Virus record (IMG/VR): IMGVR_UViG_2778261514_000007
Coordinates: 1-6,445 of that record
DNA length: 6,445 nt
DNA from: a virus
Lineage: Duplodnaviria > Heunggongvirae > Uroviricota > Caudoviricetes
Direction: 5' to 3' (one strand)
This document shows, one piece after another, positions 1-6,445 of the stretch (position 1 is its first letter; each line of letters begins with the position of its first letter). The notes under the pieces were generated by a model. It was not told the origin of the DNA and did not search any database. It was given only the letters and a program-made list of their open reading frames with translations. The position numbers and the translations under genes are program-made.

Positions 1-64
1 TTTAACGTCCCCAGACCGCTAACGACGCATGTGCCATACGCCGTGTTACAACCAACCTTTCGTT

Positions 65-81
65 AACAACAGTCTGTTGTT
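65..81. promoter_or_regulatory. 17-bp perfect palindrome aacaacag-t-ctgttgtt (8-1-8), just downstream of the putative leftward promoter; candidate operator or 5' RNA hairpin
   Basis: Seen directly: positions 65-72 are the exact reverse complement of 74-81. Function is inferred from position only. Confidence 0.3.
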
Positions 82-91
82 TGTTCAGATA

Positions 92-120
92 ATGATGCTA
101 CTAAAAGTAGCAAAAATCAA
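92..120 (-). promoter_or_regulatory. PL/OL-like leftward promoter-operator module
   Basis: Minus-strand reading ttgatttttgctacttttagtagcatcat matches the module upstream of the cro-like gene (2485-2513, ttgcaatttgctattttaagtagcatcat) at 24 of 29 positions. It contains a -35-like TTGATT, a 17-nt spacer holding the dyad ctact-ttt-agtag (plus strand 98-110), and a weak -10-like CATCAT. An extra aagtag half-site lies at 128-133. Confidence 0.45.
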
Positions 121-350
121 CAACAAAAAGTAGAAGTGTGTATTTAATTTTTAGTTTTCTATATAACGTTATGAATTAAAAGGTTTTTCACAGATGGGGG
201 GATGTGGTGTAGTTACGTATAGAAAATATCGAGTGTCTTTTGTTTTGGTTTAATTATTAGGTTAATTAGATAGTAATAATTTTGGGGAAAATAGTGGGAA
301 CTATGGATACAACGGGTCAGGAACAGTGTTATTAAGCAGGCTACGAGTAT

Positions 351-372
351 AAAACCCGACCTGTTGGTCGGG
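351..372 (-). terminator. Rho-independent terminator downstream of the ParA-like gene
   Basis: 7-bp GC-rich stem cccgacc (355-361) / ggtcggg (366-372) with a 4-nt loop. On the minus strand the stem is followed by TTTT (complement of aaaa 351-354) then ATACT. It lies 37 nt past the minus-strand stop at 409-411. On the plus strand it is not followed by a T-tract, so it is unidirectional. Confidence 0.55.
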
Positions 373-408
373 CGAGAATTATGTTCGTTCTAAATCATGG
401 TTATTGTA

Positions 409-1494
409 TTACAGACACTTGACTACTGTTGAAACATCAGATTCTAGTGCTTCAATTTGTGCTCTATTAGCTTGGGTCGCCATACCATAGATAGTGTAAC
501 TCTTATGCTGCAGCCTACTTAAAGGGCATCCCTCATGGTTTATTATTGCTGCAAGAGTATTACCATCTTTGACATTTTGAACTCTCTCGAAAGTAGCCAC
601 ATTTGTGAACAGATGAGGATGTGTATTTAACAGGTCATCCGTGATTCTTTTGATCTCTTCTGCATGTGATTTGAATGCTTTTGCTGCATCACTTTCATTA
701 GTTCTTGAGCGGTTTTGTACGAAAAGGTGTAGTTCAGGTAGTTCGATAAGGTTTTGCTTTGCTTCTTTGTTGAAATCTAAGAACATTTCATCTTGTTCTG
801 ACTTGTCAATAGACACTCCATAAATAAGTTTAACAAGGTTTTTTATTCCGCGAATTGATGCAGCATCGGCAGTGCAAGGGATAATTATTCTATTTGCCGC
901 GACTACTCCCAATTCTGTGTAGCTGGCAAAACTTGGATTACAATCAATAAAAAATGTTTTTGCTCTGTCAGAAATGTTTTTATCGGCTTCAAAAGATGCT
1001 ATTAGATCTACCAGCAAAGATCGGCTTTTCTTCCATGCTTCTTTTACTGGGGATGAGCCAATGTGAGATATTAAGCGTGAACAGATATCAAGATCGACAT
1101 CACCAGGAAGAATATATAAGTTCTCTGGCATTTTTGCATTAACATCATGGGCTCGTACAAAGTAAGAAGATTCATTTCCTAAACGAGACAAAGGAGATTT
1201 GCTAAAACGCTCCTTGATATAACCTGCGATTGTAACATTTCTGTCTCGCAATTTATTTAGATTTTCTTCCCCGGTACCATTGCCACCAAGAATAATTTCT
1301 GAAACGTTTGATTGAGGGCATGAGTCAATAACCACAACATCTTGATCCGGATGAGATATAGCAAACTCAACGGCAAGATTATATGTAAGAAAAGTTTTTC
1401 CTACACCACCTTTGTTGTTCCATACTAAATATTTTGTATTGGTGGAAATCATATCTGCTACCCCATCTGTCGCTTCAGTACGTTCATTAATCAT
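409..1494 (-). CDS. ParA/MinD/Soj-family (deviant Walker A) ATPase, 361 aa, with a ~110-aa C-terminal extension of unknown function; no ParB partner
   Basis: ORF-track protein has NKGGVGKT at residues 27-34 (deviant Walker A with the signature lysine) and a ParA-like Walker B region FFIDCNPSFASYTELGVVAANRIIIPCTADAASIRG. ATG at 1494-1492 is preceded by AGGA with a 7-nt spacer on the minus strand. The gene is visibly AT-rich relative to the right half of the window (not computed). Confidence 0.85.
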   Translation of the reverse strand: MINERTEATDGVADMISTNTKYLVWNNKGGVGKTFLTYNLAVEFAISHPDQDVVVIDSCPQSNVSEIILGGNGTGEENLNKLRDRNVTIAGYIKERFSKSPLSRLGNESSYFVRAHDVNAKMPENLYILPGDVDLDICSRLISHIGSSPVKEAWKKSRSLLVDLIASFEADKNISDRAKTFFIDCNPSFASYTELGVVAANRIIIPCTADAASIRGIKNLVKLIYGVSIDKSEQDEMFLDFNKEAKQNLIELPELHLFVQNRSRTNESDAAKAFKSHAEEIKRITDDLLNTHPHLFTNVATFERVQNVKDGNTLAAIINHEGCPLSRLQHKSYTIYGMATQANRAQIEALESDVSTVVKCL

Positions 1495-1728
1495 TATCGT
1501 ATCCTGTTGTATAGAATTGTCTATTATTTATGTTTTATTTTGGTTTTTTTTGTGTTAGTAACGCACCCAAAGATAACATATGGTCTTTATCTTTTCTTAC
1601 TTAGGGTAACAGCTCAGTGTTAATCCATTTTTATGGACCAATGTGCCAAATAAAATTTGTATAAAGATTTTCTATCCTTATCTTTTATCATCTGTGCTCG
1701 TTTGCTTTAACGATTGCTAGATGCCTAA

Positions 1729-2469
1729 TTAAAGTCGATTATATTTAATCGACTCATGAATCAGTGCCTTACCCATAACATAAAGCTGATCTTGCGACTT
1801 CTCATCAATGTACCATTTCTCATAGGCGGGGTTATCCGAAAGAACAGCTAGTTTGTTGCCTTGCATTTGTAGACGTTTAACATGGAAAGTCTTACCGTAA
1901 ACGAAAGAGTAAACTCCATCAGTCTGGAAGTGGCGAACGGAAATGTCGACAAACAATCGATCCCCGGAAACAAGAGTTGGGGACATACTATCTCCATTTA
2001 CCGTCATAACTTTTATATCATTCTGAGAACGGTTTCCGAAAAGAGAACGGGCATGTTCAGTTGTGAACTCAATGGCGTAGAGCACATCAACATAGTCTGA
2101 AAGCATATAGGTCCCAGGTCCTGCGCTAACGCTAAGATCCAAAACTTCTATCCTGTATACATCGGGCTTTGTTGGATTGGGGATGCTTGCCATTTCCTTA
2201 CATTCCTCTCTATCTCCAACACCATATTCTAGATATGAAGCTGATACTCCAAGAGCCAACGCAAGTTTACTCATGACAGAGACACGTGGCTTCGCTGCGC
2301 CGATTGTGTATCGACGAGCCATTTCATATGTAACGCCCACAAGACTTTTGAGTTGAGTGACAGAGATTCCTTTGATTGTCATCAATTCGTTTAGTCTCTT
2401 GGCGAAATCTGGATACTTCTGTTCTTCTACCATAGGTAGAAGATTACTCACATCGCACGCGCTAGTCAT
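1729..2469 (-). CDS. cI-like prophage repressor: N-terminal HTH (XRE-type) plus C-terminal S24 LexA-like autopeptidase domain
   Basis: N-terminal HTH-like segment FAKRLNELMTIKGISVTQLKSLVGVTYEMARRY. C-terminal S24 hallmarks: Ser in NGDSMSP, Lys in HVKRL, and a possible Ala-Gly cleavage site in VSAGPG. The ORF-track start at 2490 is a TTG; the first ATG is at 2469-2467 with no Shine-Dalgarno, consistent with a leaderless PRM-type transcript as for lambda cI. Start is therefore 2469 or 2490. Confidence 0.85.
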   Translation of the reverse strand: MTSACDVSNLLPMVEEQKYPDFAKRLNELMTIKGISVTQLKSLVGVTYEMARRYTIGAAKPRVSVMSKLALALGVSASYLEYGVGDREECKEMASIPNPTKPDVYRIEVLDLSVSAGPGTYMLSDYVDVLYAIEFTTEHARSLFGNRSQNDIKVMTVNGDSMSPTLVSGDRLFVDISVRHFQTDGVYSFVYGKTFHVKRLQMQGNKLAVLSDNPAYEKWYIDEKSQDQLYVMGKALIHESIKYNRL

Positions 2470-2539
2470 TTCTATTTTAAGTAGTTGCAATTTGCTATTT
2501 TAAGTAGCATCATCCCTCTGAATTTCAGAGGAGAAAGGT
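2470..2539. promoter_or_regulatory. Divergent promoter/operator region (PRM-like leftward, PR-like rightward) between repressor and cro-like gene
   Basis: Exact 13-bp direct repeat ctattttaagtag at 2472-2484 and 2495-2507, each an imperfect dyad (ctaYt-NNN-agtag). -35-like TTGCAA at 2485-2490, 17-nt spacer, -10-like CATCAT at 2508-2513. On the minus strand a TAAAAT hexamer sits 4 nt upstream of the repressor ATG. A 17-bp palindrome (2515-2531) overlaps the cro Shine-Dalgarno. Confidence 0.55.
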
Positions 2540-2779
2540 ATGTCATCTCAAAACTACACAGAGAAAGCAGTAAAGGCTGCGGGAAAATCTTTATCTGAAG
2601 TAGCCCGTCGCTTTGGTTTTAAGTCCACTCAATCCGTCGCCAATTGGGTAATTAACAATCAAGTCCCGTCAGAACGGGTTTTACAACTTTGTGAGTTGGG
2701 AAACTGGTCCGTGACCCCTCATGAACTGCGTCCTGATATTTACCCCAATCCAAATGATGGATTACCTGAGTGCTATTAA
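2540..2779 (+). CDS. Cro-like small HTH regulator (YdaS/Cro family), 79 aa
   Basis: Strong RBS gaggag (2528-2533) 6 nt upstream of ATG 2540. The motif VPSERVLQLCELGNWSVTPHELRPDIY matches my recollection of the YdaS/Cro-family signature (..VP.ERV...E..TG..RHELRPD..). Divergent from the repressor, in the classic cro position. Confidence 0.8.
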   Translation: MSSQNYTEKAVKAAGKSLSEVARRFGFKSTQSVANWVINNQVPSERVLQLCELGNWSVTPHELRPDIYPNPNDGLPECY

Positions 2780-3416
2780 AAAGTTAGCGGTTCAACTGCG
2801 TAAACGTAACCACAGAAACGAGGAATTAACCGTGGGTAAAGAACCTGAATGGAAAGTTGATAAGCAACCAGCATGGCTGGTGGCAGCAATACGAAGAACG
2901 ATTGCTGATTTACCTCATGGCTATGAGGAAGCAGCGGAAATTCTTGGTTTGTATAAATCTGATGATATCACCCCAGCGAAAGATCAATTGCATAACAGAC
3001 TGCGTAGCGGTGGGGATCAAATTTTTCCACTTGAGTGGGCCATGGTTTTACAGGATGCCAGTGGTACCAGGCATGTAACGGATGCGATAGCGCGTCGTAG
3101 TAATGGGGTGTTTGTGCCGCTGGTGGACATTGATGACATTGACAATGGTGACATTAATCAGCGGCTGATGGAGTCAATAGAATGGATTGGCAAGCATTCC
3201 CAGTACTTACGCAAGGCAACTGCTGATGGAGTTATTGACCAGGCTGAGCGTGAGCAAATCGAAGAGAACAGCTACCAAGTAATGGCGAAGTGGCAGGAGC
3301 ATTTAACACTGTTATTTCGTGTTTTTTGTGCGCCGGAAAAGAGTAACGCCCGCGAGTGTGCAGCTCCGGGCGTCGTGGCGTCGATTGCTTCTGGTTGTGG
3401 AGAAACTAACGCATGA
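2754..3416 (+). CDS. CII-like / YdaT-family lysis-lysogeny regulator (family assignment tentative)
   Basis: Open frame 2721-3416, immediately after cro as in Rac-type immunity regions; family assigned by position and general resemblance only. Start is ambiguous: ATG 2721 (ORF track), ATG-ATG 2754/2757 (both overlap the cro 3' end, no clear SD), or GTG 2832, which has a good SD (gagga, 7-nt spacer). The stop TGA 3414-3416 overlaps the next ATG (ATGA). Confidence 0.6.
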   Translation: MMDYLSAIKKLAVQLRKRNHRNEELTVGKEPEWKVDKQPAWLVAAIRRTIADLPHGYEEAAEILGLYKSDDITPAKDQLHNRLRSGGDQIFPLEWAMVLQDASGTRHVTDAIARRSNGVFVPLVDIDDIDNGDINQRLMESIEWIGKHSQYLRKATADGVIDQAEREQIEENSYQVMAKWQEHLTLLFRVFCAPEKSNARECAAPGVVASIASGCGETNA

Positions 3417-4564
3417 ACAGTTTAACGGCAAATAACCGTTTGTCGCAACAGCTGGTGGTCAGCGTCGCTGAACACCTGTTGTTACGGCATGAATGCAGAT
3501 TACCAAATCACCTGGCTGTAAGTAACCACAGAGAACTTTACCTGACTGTGGGGGGCGAGTTGTGCAGGAACTTAACCGCTGGTTTCGTGACGGAAGAGGG
3601 CTTTATGTCCATGTTATTCGTTGGGAGCCAGAAACACAGCGCGTTATCTATCTTCGCAAAGACTACCCGCATGAGTGCTTTAGTCCTTTGTGGAAATTCA
3701 GGCGTGATTTTGTTGAGTGTGAAGGACCACCAGCATATTGATTCTGCAATTCCGGGACGTTACACTGTTCCGGCACCTTATAAAGCGGGTGCCGGGCGTG
3801 GAAACCCGAAATTCAATATAGAGCACAACCGCGCTCATGCGGTTTTTTCGTGTCATGAGCATCGTTACGCCCAAATTATGGTGGGGCGTGCAGGGCCAAC
3901 TTCGGTTGGGCCGGGTTCTATGTTGACCGGTATTTCCACCCCTGTACGTCTCACCACCTATATGGTCGTGGAAAGCCTTGGTGGTGAGTTCATTGAATTC
4001 AACATAGGGGCTGTCACCATGACTACTCTCCCAACCCAATCTCACCCTGAAATCACGATTATCAATGGTCGCGTTGTCACCACATCTCTTGCAGTAGCTA
4101 ATTACTTTACTAAACGGCATGAGCGGGTTTTAGATAGAATTAGAAACCTCGAATGTTCCGCTGAATTTACTGAACACAATTTTGTGTTAAGTGAATACAC
4201 CGACGCATCAGGCCGCAAACTCCCTTGTTACCAAATCACCCGCGACGGTTTTGCGTTTCTTGCTATGGGTTTCACGGGTAAACGTGCTGCCCGGTTCAAA
4301 GAGGCATACATCAATGCCTTTAACCAGATGGAAAAACTGCTTTCAAAGCCATCCACGCTGAGCGATGCCGCAGATAACGCCAGCGTGCTTTACTCCCACC
4401 TGTCGGTAATCCACAAGGTCTGGCTGCAGCAGCTTTATCCCATGTTGGCAAAAGCCGAATCCCCGCTGGCTGTAAGTCTGTATGACCGCATCAACGACGC
4501 GGCGCTACTGGCCAGTCTCATAAATTTGTCGCTGAACCCTTCAGAGGTAAGGGGGCGCAAATGA
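3413..4564 (+). CDS. Rha-family (pRha domain) phage regulatory protein with an unusual ~200-aa N-terminal region; possibly tandem pRha-like modules
   Basis: Residues ~203-300 (MTTLPTQSHPEITIINGRVVTTSLAVANYFTKRHERVLDRIRNL...ITRDGFAFLAMGF...) match the pRha domain as I recall it. The start at 3413 has an ATGA overlap with the upstream gene and a GGAG 10 nt upstream. The N-terminal part carries a weaker echo of the same motifs (VAEHLLLRHE vs VANYFTKRHE; VTEEGFMSMLFVG vs ITRDGFAFLAMGF). An internal ATG at 4019, preceded by GGGG, could start a canonical ~181-aa Rha. Confidence 0.65.
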   Translation: MNSLTANNRLSQQLVVSVAEHLLLRHECRLPNHLAVSNHRELYLTVGGELCRNLTAGFVTEEGFMSMLFVGSQKHSALSIFAKTTRMSALVLCGNSGVILLSVKDHQHIDSAIPGRYTVPAPYKAGAGRGNPKFNIEHNRAHAVFSCHEHRYAQIMVGRAGPTSVGPGSMLTGISTPVRLTTYMVVESLGGEFIEFNIGAVTMTTLPTQSHPEITIINGRVVTTSLAVANYFTKRHERVLDRIRNLECSAEFTEHNFVLSEYTDASGRKLPCYQITRDGFAFLAMGFTGKRAARFKEAYINAFNQMEKLLSKPSTLSDAADNASVLYSHLSVIHKVWLQQLYPMLAKAESPLAVSLYDRINDAALLASLINLSLNPSEVRGRK

Positions 4565-4785
4565 TCCGGAATATTTTCAAACGGTTTACCAATCAGACTT
4601 TCCGTTGTCCTCGTCCTGGTCAGTGGTACACCACGCCTGCAGGGCATGTTCTACGTGTTAGCCTGGTTGACCGTGAATGTCAGAAGGTGATTTGTGAACC
4701 GCTGGGCCGTAATTACCGCGTCAGTATGCCGCTTATAGCCTTTTGCTCCGGAAAAATGTTTAAGCGTCTGGGAGGTGTGGCGTGA
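4561..4785 (+). CDS. Small hypothetical protein, 74 aa, 4 Cys
   Basis: ATG overlaps the Rha stop (ATGA at 4561-4564); RBS aggtaaggggg upstream; stop overlaps the next gene's GTG. No family recognised. Confidence 0.55.
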   Translation: MIRNIFKRFTNQTFRCPRPGQWYTTPAGHVLRVSLVDRECQKVICEPLGRNYRVSMPLIAFCSGKMFKRLGGVA

Positions 4786-5081
4786 ACTGTTTTCAGTTTG
4801 TGTGCGGATGTGCTTTCGATAACCCGATTCAGCGCCTGATTATGTTGCGTGTTTTGATGTCGGGTTCTTCAGACGGTGAAGGCGAGAGAGTTATTGATCA
4901 TCAGGTGCTTGCTGATTTCTGCTGTTGTTCTAAGCAAGCGATATTCAGGGAAACCCTGGCACTGGAAAGAGCTGGTTATCTTCATATCCGAAAAATTGCA
5001 ACGCTTACTATTGATGCAAAAGCCAGACTACAACCTGCGCGTGGCTACACAATTCTCATGCTGCGGAAGGAGGTTGTATGA
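4782..5081 (+). CDS. Small hypothetical protein, 99 aa, GTG start, 6 Cys, possible HTH
   Basis: GTG at 4782 overlaps the upstream stop (GTGA); RBS gggagg about 8 nt upstream; stop overlaps the next ATG (ATGA at 5078-5081). The segment SKQAIFRETLALERAGYLHIRK is HTH-like. No family recognised. Confidence 0.55.
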   Translation: MNCFQFVCGCAFDNPIQRLIMLRVLMSGSSDGEGERVIDHQVLADFCCCSKQAIFRETLALERAGYLHIRKIATLTIDAKARLQPARGYTILMLRKEVV

Positions 5082-6061
5082 GCCGTTACGCCCCCACACC
5101 GGAAGTTATGGCTATTGGTCAAATTAATATTTCCGGCAATGTTACACCTGCGACCTGGTGGAAATATATTCGACTACCCAGTGGGCGTCCGGATGCGACG
5201 GCTATCGCTCTGCTTTCAGAGATCGTTTACTGGTACCGCCCGACAGAGGTCAGGGATGAGCACACCGGAGCGTTGCTGGGATATCGCAAGCGTTTTCAGG
5301 GCGACAAACTGCAAAGAAGCTACCAGGCGTTTGCTGAGCAGTTTGGTTTCGGGAAAAGGGAAACCGCAGATGCGCTGAAGCGTCTGCGCGATGCAGGGTT
5401 TATTACTCTGGATTTACGCACGGTGGAAATGCTCGATGGGGTGAAATGCAGCAATATTTTGTTTGTCGGGATCAACCCACAGGCAATTGCGGCCATCACC
5501 ACACCTTCTTCTGTTTCGCCAGAAAGTAACAGCAATAATGCAATCAGCGATACAGCTATTACGTTAAAACGGAACACCCCCCGACGTCATAACGGAACAG
5601 GGGATACGCCGAATGTTGATACAAATACAGAGATTACTACAGAGATTACAACGGAGACTAAAAACACTATTGATGCATCCGCTGACGCGTCTGCGCCAGC
5701 GCGTTCTGCCCGACAGGAATATTCACCGGAATTTGAACAGGCCTGGCAGGAATATCCCAAACGTGCTGGTGGCAATTCAAAATCAGCAGCCTTCAAAGCC
5801 TGGAAAGCCCGTTTGAACGAGGGGGTAAACCCCGAAACCATGCTGGAAGGTGTGAAACGCTACGCGGGCTGGGTATCTGCGATGGGCAATAGCGGCACAC
5901 AATTTGTGAAACAGGCTGTCACGTTCTTTGGTCCGGATCGTCATTTCGAAGAATCCTGGGAAGTTCCTGCGGTATCTGCAGCCAGACGCGAGGACCCGTA
6001 CTTCAAAGCCAGTTACGACAACGTGGACTACAGCCAGATCCCGACAGGATTCAGGGGGTGA
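5078..6061 (+). CDS. Phage replication initiation protein (lambda O-like / replisome organiser), 327 aa
   Basis: Strong RBS ggaaggagg (5066-5074). N-terminal HTH-like domain (FGFGKRETADALKRLRDAGFITL), a central low-complexity Thr/Glu/Ile linker, and a C-terminal segment EFEQAWQEYPKRAGG...AAFKAWKARL of the kind seen at the C-terminus of phage replication proteins (recalled pattern). Position after the regulators fits. Confidence 0.7.
   Translation: MSRYAPTPEVMAIGQINISGNVTPATWWKYIRLPSGRPDATAIALLSEIVYWYRPTEVRDEHTGALLGYRKRFQGDKLQRSYQAFAEQFGFGKRETADALKRLRDAGFITLDLRTVEMLDGVKCSNILFVGINPQAIAAITTPSSVSPESNSNNAISDTAITLKRNTPRRHNGTGDTPNVDTNTEITTEITTETKNTIDASADASAPARSARQEYSPEFEQAWQEYPKRAGGNSKSAAFKAWKARLNEGVNPETMLEGVKRYAGWVSAMGNSGTQFVKQAVTFFGPDRHFEESWEVPAVSAARREDPYFKASYDNVDYSQIPTGFRG
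5627..5662. repeat. Short tandem repeat (12-bp unit acagagattacW x2 plus a degenerate third copy) inside the replication gene linker
   Basis: acagagattact (5627-5638) and acagagattaca (5639-5650), followed by acggagactaaa. Encodes TEITTEITTET. Followed by an A/T-rich stretch. Confidence 0.5.
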
Positions 6062-6063
6062 TC

Positions 6064-6445
6064 ATGAGTCTGATGAACGATGTACAGAAATTCATTGAAG
6101 CCCATCCGGGGTGTACTTCAGGTGACATTGCGGATGCTTTTGCTGGTTACTCACGACAGTGCGTTCTGCAGTCAGCAAGCAAGTTACGTCAGAGTGGCCG
6201 TGTGGCTCACTGTTGTGAAGGGAAAACACGCAGACATTTCCCACACCAGGCTGAGATATCGCAGGAGGAGAAACTGCAACCTGTTCTTGAAACCATACCT
6301 GTGCGCAATTTCTATGTCGGCACTAACGATCCCCGGGTGATTTTGTGCCTGACCCGCCAGGCGGAAGAACTGGAGTCCAGGGGCTTATACCGTCGTGCTG
6401 CAACCGTGTGGATGGCGGCATTCCGTGAAAGCCACTCCCAGCCAG
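6064..6445 (+). CDS. Hypothetical protein, 3'-truncated at window edge (at least 127 codons); N-terminal winged-helix-like segment, C-terminal PerC/ANR-like motif (tentative)
   Basis: ATG 6064 lies 2 nt after the replication gene stop, with GGGGG upstream; the frame is open to the end of the window. It is absent from the ORF track only because no stop is reached. The motif LESRGLYRRAATVWM resembles my recollection of PerC-family proteins. Confidence 0.55.
   Translation, partial: MSLMNDVQKFIEAHPGCTSGDIADAFAGYSRQCVLQSASKLRQSGRVAHCCEGKTRRHFPHQAEISQEEKLQPVLETIPVRNFYVGTNDPRVILCLTRQAEELESRGLYRRAATVWMAAFRESHSQP

Follow-up and report, generated by a model that had tools for sequence, protein, structure and literature searches.

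A probable lambda-type pair of operator and promoter modules bounding the cI-ParA unit of an Escherichia coli lambdoid prophage

The DNA analysed here (the window) is 6445 bp long and represents positions 1 to 6,445 of IMG/VR record IMGVR_UViG_2778261514_000007; it is the early control region of a lambdoid prophage from E. coli, one of the SfV / mEp460 / cdtI / CPS-53 type. It carries two modules, at 92-138 and 2467-2513, that are inverted copies of each other, and these are very probably the OL/PL and OR/PR control regions of a lambda-type prophage switch. They flank a leftward unit made up of the cI repressor gene, a ParA-like cargo gene and a terminator, and the right module faces cro. This assignment is drawn from an inverted repeat that exceeds chance, the identities of the genes, the boundaries of an exchangeable cassette, the conservation of the modules as islands, the register of operators with promoters, and the association of the operators with a CI helix motif. 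The PL/OL-PR/OR architecture had been proposed in an earlier, sequence-only reading of this DNA, and the repressor gene between the modules, the divergent cro, the outward-facing predicted promoters, the cassette and the conservation described below all agree with it. The design is most likely the textbook lambda one, as far as sequence can tell, built on a repressor-binding sequence that is uncharacterised but widespread in phages of several bacterial families.

The genes that identify the region are the following.

354-373, minus strand: intrinsic terminator with an 8-bp stem (6 GC pairs) followed by TTTTAT; the same element is present in L010 (a plasmid-borne relative, see below)
409-1494, minus strand: ParA-like ATPase gene (Pfam AAA_31 and CbiA; PHROG 164)
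1729-2433, minus strand: cI repressor gene, 234 aa, with an N-terminal helix-turn-helix (HTH) domain and a C-terminal S24 LexA-like autopeptidase domain
2540-2779, plus strand: cro, 79 aa, encoding a YdaS/Cro-type HTH protein (Pfam YdaS_toxin and HTH_3; PHROG 35)

The CI protein matches Pfam HTH_3 (E = 1.7e-5) and Peptidase_S24 (E = 1.9e-16) and PHROG 4 and 6201, and its translation shows the AG and GDSM...K motifs; compared with solved structures it gave no match at E <= 0.01. Cro matches the PDB entry 3bd1, "Cro protein" (E = 2.8e-5), and its gene is divergent from cI and starts 27 nt past the right module. An alternative cI start at ATG 2469, which would add 12 residues, was rejected because residues 3-7 of the extension are poorly conserved and everything after the methionine at 2433 is conserved; the PGAP annotation also begins the gene at 2433. 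The terminator at 354-373 is placed to end the leftward cI-ParA unit and by analogy is the counterpart of lambda tImm. The sequence-level marks by which a lambdoid switch is recognised are thus found here, namely a CI with an S24 domain, a divergent Cro, operators between cI and cro that lie on divergent promoters, a second outward-facing cluster, and exchange as a cassette.

The inverted repeat, its operators and its promoters

The reverse complement of 92-120 (TTGATTTTTGCTACTTTTAGTAGCATCAT) and the sequence 2485-2513 (TTGCAATTTGCTATTTTAAGTAGCATCAT) are identical at 24 of 29 positions, as had been counted in the sequence-only reading. This identity is marginal by itself, as a search of the whole window for inverted matches gave best values of 20-25 in 30 dinucleotide shuffles, one of which reached 25. 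The similarity is longer than had been noted; arms at 92-138 and 2467-2513 extend over 47 nt, are 79% complementary, and form the top inverted repeat in an independent repeat finder. Their identity is 37/47, and the shuffle maximum is 32. The elements of the two modules and of the adjoining cI start are as follows.

92-138, minus strand: left module (OL2, PL -35, OL1, PL -10), the inverted copy of 2467-2513
92-97, minus strand: putative PL -10, CATCAT, 17 nt from TTGATT; predicted start near 85
98-110: OL1, CTACTTTTAGTAG, inside the PL spacer; exact pattern match with perfect 5-bp arms
115-120, minus strand: putative PL -35, TTGATT, read from the sequence
121-133: OL2, CTACTTTTTGTTG, with one degenerate arm and its centre 23 bp from that of OL1; 2-mismatch match
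2425-2441: O3, palindrome TTCTACC-ATA-GGTAGAA, a CTAC-N5-GTAG match with the cI start codon (ATG, A at 2433) at its centre
2441-2446, minus strand: proposed PRM -10, TAATCT, from a phylogenetic footprint; not called by the promoter scanner
2464-2469, minus strand: proposed PRM -35, ATGACT, 2 bp from OR2; ATGACA in relatives
2467-2513, plus strand: right module (OR2, PR -35, OR1, PR -10), the second arm of the 47-nt inverted repeat
2472-2484: OR2, CTATTTTAAGTAG, exact pattern match and direct repeat with OR1 at 23-bp spacing
2485-2490, plus strand: putative PR -35, TTGCAA, read from the sequence
2495-2507: OR1, CTATTTTAAGTAG, inside the PR spacer; exact pattern match
2508-2513, plus strand: putative PR -10, CATCAT, 17 nt past TTGCAA; predicted start near 2520

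Each module contains two 13-bp CTAY-N5-RTAG palindromes; one of them fills the 17-nt spacer of an outward sigma-70-like promoter, and the other abuts its -35 hexamer on the upstream side. The earlier reading had correctly placed an operator in each spacer and had counted one per module, where there are two with centres 23 bp apart; the dyad it described is perfect on the left (CTACT-TTT-AGTAG) and only 4/5 on the right. The pattern CTAYTTTWAGTAG has three exact matches in the window (98-110, 2472-2484 and 2495-2507) and a fourth with 2 mismatches at 121-133. When up to 3 mismatches are allowed it has 14 matches, compared with 5.0 +/- 2.5 expected, and none of 200 shuffles reaches 14. OL1 is conserved in all related loci. 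OL2 is in register with OR2 within the 47-nt repeat, and its position is occupied by a perfect CTACTTTTTGTAG in the related locus L011 and in many IMG/VR loci. The columns of O3 are >=95% conserved in 66 distinct OR sequences and are unconstrained by the pattern used to find them; from its position this palindrome is proposed to be an autorepression site over the PRM start. A CTAY-N5-RTAG pair at 23 bp is an easy mark by which OL and OR can be annotated in this switch family.

Both -35/-10 pairs stand where the earlier reading had put them, with 17-nt spacers, and the left one does point outwards, with cI and ParA behind it and, in related loci, only leftward genes ahead. The TTG of the PL -35 is conserved across lineages (TTGATT, TTGCTA, TTGCAA, TTGCAT), and the PL -10 keeps A2 and T6 in relatives, where it reads CAACAT, CAATAT, TAGATT, CATTAT or TATAGT. 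Similarly, an alignment of 12 distinct modules from 8 loci keeps the half-sites, the TTG and the -10 A2 and T6 throughout, and the right module is conserved in 66-72 distinct OR sequences. Better -10 hexamers than those of the window occur in relatives, with CATTAT or TATTAT at PR and TATAGT or TATATT at PL. In one separate group of lineages the TTG of PR is displaced 3 nt to the left, the -10 (TAGTAT) has moved likewise by 3 nt and the spacer is still 17, so that this shifted register is apparently used at OR there. The corresponding PR register in the window, TAGTTG-17-TAGCAT, was rejected, as the equivalent register at OL is without the -10 T6 in most lineages. We note that the prophage of STEC17-183 (L002), which is 99.9% identical to window 1-2800, has TCGCAA as its PR -35 (its positions 11485-11490) where the window has TTGCAA, and that this may be a promoter-down change in that prophage.

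It is improbable that the left copy is only a distal operator cluster, used for looping or as a repressor sink, in which the hexamers are passengers of common ancestry and from which no promoter fires, the leftward early start being elsewhere. Its hexamers, at 8/12 and uncalled by the scanner, and the ~0.4-0.6 kb without an open reading frame (ORF) that follow downstream in the window's lineage would suit such a cluster. Against this, the -10 varies among lineages (CATCAT, CAACAT, CAATAT, TAGATT, TATAGT) and yet A2, T6 and a distance of 17-18 nt to the TTG are kept. Nor does the stretch from ParA to the left-hand genes offer an alternative leftward promoter, as the single scanner match there, at 432-403, would run into the terminator at 373-354, and in the related locus L004 a gene starts in the right orientation ~80 nt downstream of the module.

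The proposed PRM comes from a footprint in the 66 distinct OR sequences. In these, O3 and a plus-strand AGATTA are 83-100% conserved and are followed by a variable spacer (39-89% per column) whose length is constant at 17, and directly after it by AGTCAT, which adjoins OR2. The succession of O3, AGATTA and spacer arose without being imposed by the search pattern; the TCAT columns of the -35 were fixed by that pattern, and the G before the TCAT anchor, which is 97% conserved, is the only hexamer column free of the search. A start at 2433-2434 is predicted from this register, which would make the cI mRNA leaderless, as for lambda PRM, and would explain why no Shine-Dalgarno sequence precedes ATG 2433. 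The leftward TTAAAA-18-TAAAAT called by the scanner was rejected as PRM since it falls within OR1 and OR2 and a lysogen would keep it off.

Conservation of the modules, the CI helix segment and the cassette

The cI-cro pair of the window is present in 206 of 5426 complete E. coli genomes (~4%), including Shiga toxin-producing and avian pathogenic E. coli (APEC) strains; 71 of these match at >=99% identity and have this ParA, 133 match at 90-95% and 2 at 80-90%. Separately, the left region was matched in 174 genomes, in about 100 of them only over 43-46 bp at window 89-134. The left module is likewise a ~45-bp island in L003, L004, L005 and L011, four related loci in which both flanks are unrelated and the cargo has changed.

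The earlier reading had proposed that related prophages be searched for the operator consensus, and the motif was found in E. coli prophages, in IMG/VR loci and in other genera. A scan of IMG/VR with the two-site pattern gave at least 119 stretches; among those listed, 106 have a Cro homologue (40-100% identical) and the CI homologues are 26-100% identical. An inverted second module, which the search did not force, lies 0.8-2.7 kb away in 39 of the 50 IMG/VR loci with enough left flank, and the 11 loci without one come from groups in which only the N-terminal domain of CI is shared. Further afield, Providencia phage PSTCR8lys, Acinetobacter phage AbTJ, Aggregatibacter phage Aaphi23 and Moraxella phage Mcat4 have CTAC-N5-GTAG sites between cI and cro as well as distal sites, and their CI N-terminal domains are 47-54% identical to that of the window. 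In PSTCR8lys (L132) a cro homologue (MHQENITEKAIRAVG...) that is not annotated in the record lies right after the phage's OR, at ~2880-2680 on the minus strand.

The operators are accompanied by one segment of CI. In four aligned E. coli CI variants, which are 83-96% identical, the helix segment EMARRYTIGAAKPR is invariant, and among 50 distinct CI N-terminal sequences (37-100% identical) the motif (V/I)(S/T)YEM(A/V/I)RRYT(I/L)G is kept wherever the helix is covered, in 49 of 50, the most distant being the exception; its core across the distinct N-terminal domains is YEM(A/V/I)RRYT. Going by its alignment to Pfam HTH_3, this segment is where the recognition helix should lie. Neither the helix motif nor the sites occur in five cI loci that are heteroimmune or unrelated, and a search of representative genomes with CI found three loci (in Citrobacter, Enterobacter and Salmonella) that have a different N-terminal domain and no motif and serve as negative controls only.

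The consensus had also been thought to define an immunity specificity of its own. A narrow specificity is contradicted by these comparisons, as phages from several bacterial families, with CI N-terminal domains only 40-60% identical, have the consensus in common. A single operator and recognition-helix pair (CTAC-N5-GTAG with TYEMxRRYT) may have been frozen across phages of Enterobacterales, Pasteurellaceae and Moraxellaceae despite 40-60% CI identity, an idea that we hold only tentatively, together with the hairpin proposal given further below. If it is true, immunity has not been diversified here through operator specificity as it has among lambda, 434 and P22, and distant repressors might cross-repress.

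That Cro or some other regulator, rather than CI, is the main protein to bind the palindromes, with the CI helix associated through common descent alone, we think quite unlikely. Cro homologues (40-100% identical) do accompany the motif in 106 of the at least 119 loci listed, and Cro-like genes adjoin the sites in the distant phages too. The CI helix segment, however, is far more conserved than the rest of its domain, O3 lies on the cI start at a position sensible for CI autoregulation, and shared use of operators by both proteins is established for lambdoid switches; to our knowledge CI and Cro use the same operators in every such switch studied.

The modules also lie within an exchangeable block. 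Phages mEp460, cdtI and Stx phages match window 1-55 and the sequence beyond 2809 at ~90% but do not match the interval between, where mEp460 has a cI and a cro of its own and, at either end, repeated sequences that are likewise its own. To judge from these matches, ~57-2808 behaves as an immunity cassette that is exchanged whole between heteroimmune phages. The earlier reading was right that there is a cassette with the repressor and ParA genes; its size is nearer 2.75 kb than the 2.4 kb given, and cro, which lies outside the two modules, is yet part of what is exchanged. A distant DNA search of deposited phages with 57-2808 found only partial matches to ParA or to the C-terminal part of cI, and none with this cI-cro. 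This early region of the prophage also occurs outside the chromosome, on a large APEC plasmid (pEND_Eco 18005, 204.8 kb; L010), with CI and ParA proteins identical to those of the window.

Between cI and OL the cargo differs by lineage, being this ParA, a 23%-identical ParA-like protein, two small hypothetical genes or nothing; with the slot empty, the modules are ~850 bp apart. In a Klebsiella phage (L006) the slot is taken by a ParA of 75% identity; there the neighbouring cI is unrelated and the motif is absent. Examples of the slot are the following.

Window, 409-1494, minus strand
L003, 5000-6076
L005, 3298-3972
L011, 3779-4478
L006, 3976-5052

In lambda this slot between cI and OL is occupied by rexAB. 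A PADLOC search with ParA, CI and Cro gave no meaningful match and no defence system for ParA. The variety of the cargo and the Klebsiella ParA fit the region downstream of cI as a known mosaic and defence hotspot (PMC8585504). The slot is thereby delimited as a place where lysogen-expressed accessory or defence genes sit, and its cargo includes two very different ParA-like ATPases of unassigned role.

Repeated or palindromic sites are the usual partners of ParA-family ATPases, and here a gene for one stands between the modules, so the repeats could be imagined to be centromere-like (parS-type) sites for it. This is very improbable, and is contradicted by the lineages without ParA, with two small genes or nothing in the slot, in which both modules are kept unchanged. 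In addition, the Klebsiella phage has its ParA without the motif, no ParB-like partner is present, and the sites overlap promoter hexamers. Chance similarity or a neutral relic of duplication, for which the shuffles that come as high as the 24/29 match could be cited, is refuted by the 47-nt identity above all shuffles and by the comparative data, in which the module is a conserved island across lineages and genera.

As a lambda-type switch, the region would be expected to work as follows. Dimers of CI would bind the palindromes through the helix TYEMARRY, and pairs of dimers would bind cooperatively on one face of the DNA, turning PL and PR off in a lysogen. CI at OR2 would adjoin the -35 of a weak leftward PRM (ATGACT-17-TAATCT) and probably activates it, the transcript beginning at or 1 nt before the cI AUG and so being leaderless, and CI at O3, over the PRM start, would limit its own synthesis. 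Repression would be lifted by RecA-stimulated S24 self-cleavage, after which Cro would occupy the same sites. The 2.4-kb separation of the modules would allow OL-OR looping, as in lambda.

Several points weigh against this assignment. A literature search found no binding, footprint or transcription-start data for any member of the family; searched by operator string it returned only unrelated matches, and it turned up no study of the operators of Aaphi23, AbTJ, Mcat4 or PSTCR8lys. Binding by CI and by Cro is not separable from sequence, as both proteins co-occur with the motif, and the IMG/VR loci were found through the motif itself, which biases the counts of a first copy. PL and PR are each 8/12 to consensus and fall below the threshold of the promoter scanner (9/12), whose only match at OR, the leftward TTAAAA-18-TAAAAT within OR1 and OR2, misfits the model. 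The centre of OR2 is near -44.5 of the proposed PRM, ~2 bp further than what we take to be its position in lambda. Finally, no N-like antiterminator gene was found after PL, and the likeness to lambda stops at the switch. What results is a testable map of the switch, on which four or five operators, three promoters and the boundary of a cassette are placed; it bears out the lambda paradigm without extending it, save for the frozen specificity and hairpin insulation proposals.

The cro hairpin, the PL leader and the genes to the right

2515-2531, plus strand: hairpin CCTCTGA-ATT-TCAGAGG, -10 kcal/mol, with the Shine-Dalgarno sequence of cro in its 3' arm
2832-3416: CII-like YmfL gene, the next after cro

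The hairpin before cro has a consensus fold with compensatory changes in 4 of 7 pairs across 21 relatives, is present in all relatives with a CAT(T/C)AT -10, and begins its 5' arm 0-2 nt past the PR -10. The sense strand is usually the more stable, owing to G-U pairs. An antisense-strand RNA or a protein-binding palindrome is disfavoured by this usual stability of the sense strand and by a sequence that covaries rather than being conserved. With a canonical start near 2520 the 5' arm would be outside the PR transcript, and only read-through transcripts would be blocked. The hairpin might then silence Cro translation on rightward read-through from host flanks or late transcription, leaving only PR-initiated mRNA to translate Cro; this proposal and that of a frozen operator and helix pair, taken jointly, are in our view possible but doubtful. 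If it is true, the lysogenic state is insulated as by IS10 fold-back inhibition, and we know of no comparable fold-back described for cro genes. If the PR start is further upstream, the hairpin may instead be a structure at the 5' end of the cro mRNA.

The leader downstream of PL continues left of window position 1 and was followed in the plasmid-borne relative (L010 4888-5505, minus strand). Over the 0.4-0.6 kb left of PL no convincing ORF, N-like gene or Rfam match was found, and the leader of heteroimmune mEp460 is 98-99% identical to this one. About 0.45 kb from PL, at L010 5012-5076, is a strong hairpin with a U-run behind it (-21 kcal/mol), so that the early-left genes would need antitermination. 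Two further elements occur in this part of the family. A conserved motif, CAACAGCGAACAGGCAGGACGCCCACGAAGT, stands directly downstream of the PL -10 in L003, L004, L011 and many IMG/VR loci whose other flanks differ; it is not in the window, which has only a partial resemblance to it (CAAACAACAGAC). At 65-81, ~+5 to +21 of the predicted PL transcript, the window has a lineage-specific perfect palindrome with 8-bp arms, AACAACAG-T-CTGTTGTT.

To the right of YmfL are an Ash/Rha antirepressor region and then replication genes. Searches of the PL leader and OR region against Rfam gave no match, and further right only C4 and isrK were found. The C4 antisense RNA (3874-3961, plus strand, 82 bits) and isrK (3773-3849, plus strand, 62 bits) match above the gathering score, and c4-a1b1 (3760-3812, plus strand) matches below threshold; all three fall within the long ORF 3413-4564, shortly before the part that encodes its Rha antirepressor domain. 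The arrangement looks like P1/P7 immI-type RNA control of an antirepressor, a second layer of immunity, and the N-terminal part of ORF 3413-4564 is probably not translated as drawn.

Comparison with known systems

Like lambda, the window has two inverted operator-promoter clusters ~2.4 kb apart that bracket a leftward unit of cI and cargo ending in a terminator. In both, palindromic operators are spaced about two helical turns apart, one of them sitting at the -35 and another within the promoter spacer. Also shared are a divergent cro, a CI with a self-cleaving S24 C-terminal domain, and a cI mRNA that (here probably) is leaderless and comes from a weak promoter adjoining OR2. The window operators, however, are 13-bp CTAC-N5-GTAG sites unrelated to the 17-bp sites of lambda; only two are evident at OL, and the third right-hand site is 45 bp from OR2, on the cI start, and not adjacent to OR2. 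Furthermore, Cro is of the YdaS, all-helical type, the cargo is ParA-like and not RexAB, and neither an N gene nor a recognisable nut site follows PL. An N antiterminator with nut sites is a feature of lambda that is not universal, phage HK022 lacking an N gene, and its absence here leaves membership of the broader switch type unaffected.

The repressors of P22 (immC) and 434 have the same HTH_3 (XRE)-type DNA-binding domain, and these phages have short symmetric operators with an AT-rich centre and the same OL/OR logic as the window. They differ in half-site sequences and recognition helix, and neither gave a DNA match. For the hairpin only, there is a likeness to IS10/Tn10 fold-back inhibition (Davis, Simons and Kleckner 1985, as cited in PMC13181058), in which, going by that citation, sequence from before the point where the element's own transcript starts base-pairs with the ribosome-binding site. 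This likeness is a lead that, for the window, hinges on the predicted PR start.

Further parallels are the uncharacterised switches of Aaphi23, AbTJ, Mcat4 and PSTCR8lys, phages that share CTAC-N5-GTAG between cI and cro, one to two distal sites and the CI helix motif (V/I)(S/T)YEM(A/I)RRYT(L/I)G with the window but have different hosts, cargo genes and phage backbones. In three of the four (Aaphi23, PSTCR8lys and AbTJ) an O3-type site lies at or just upstream of the cI start, and in Mcat4 the third site is ~25 bp upstream of it.

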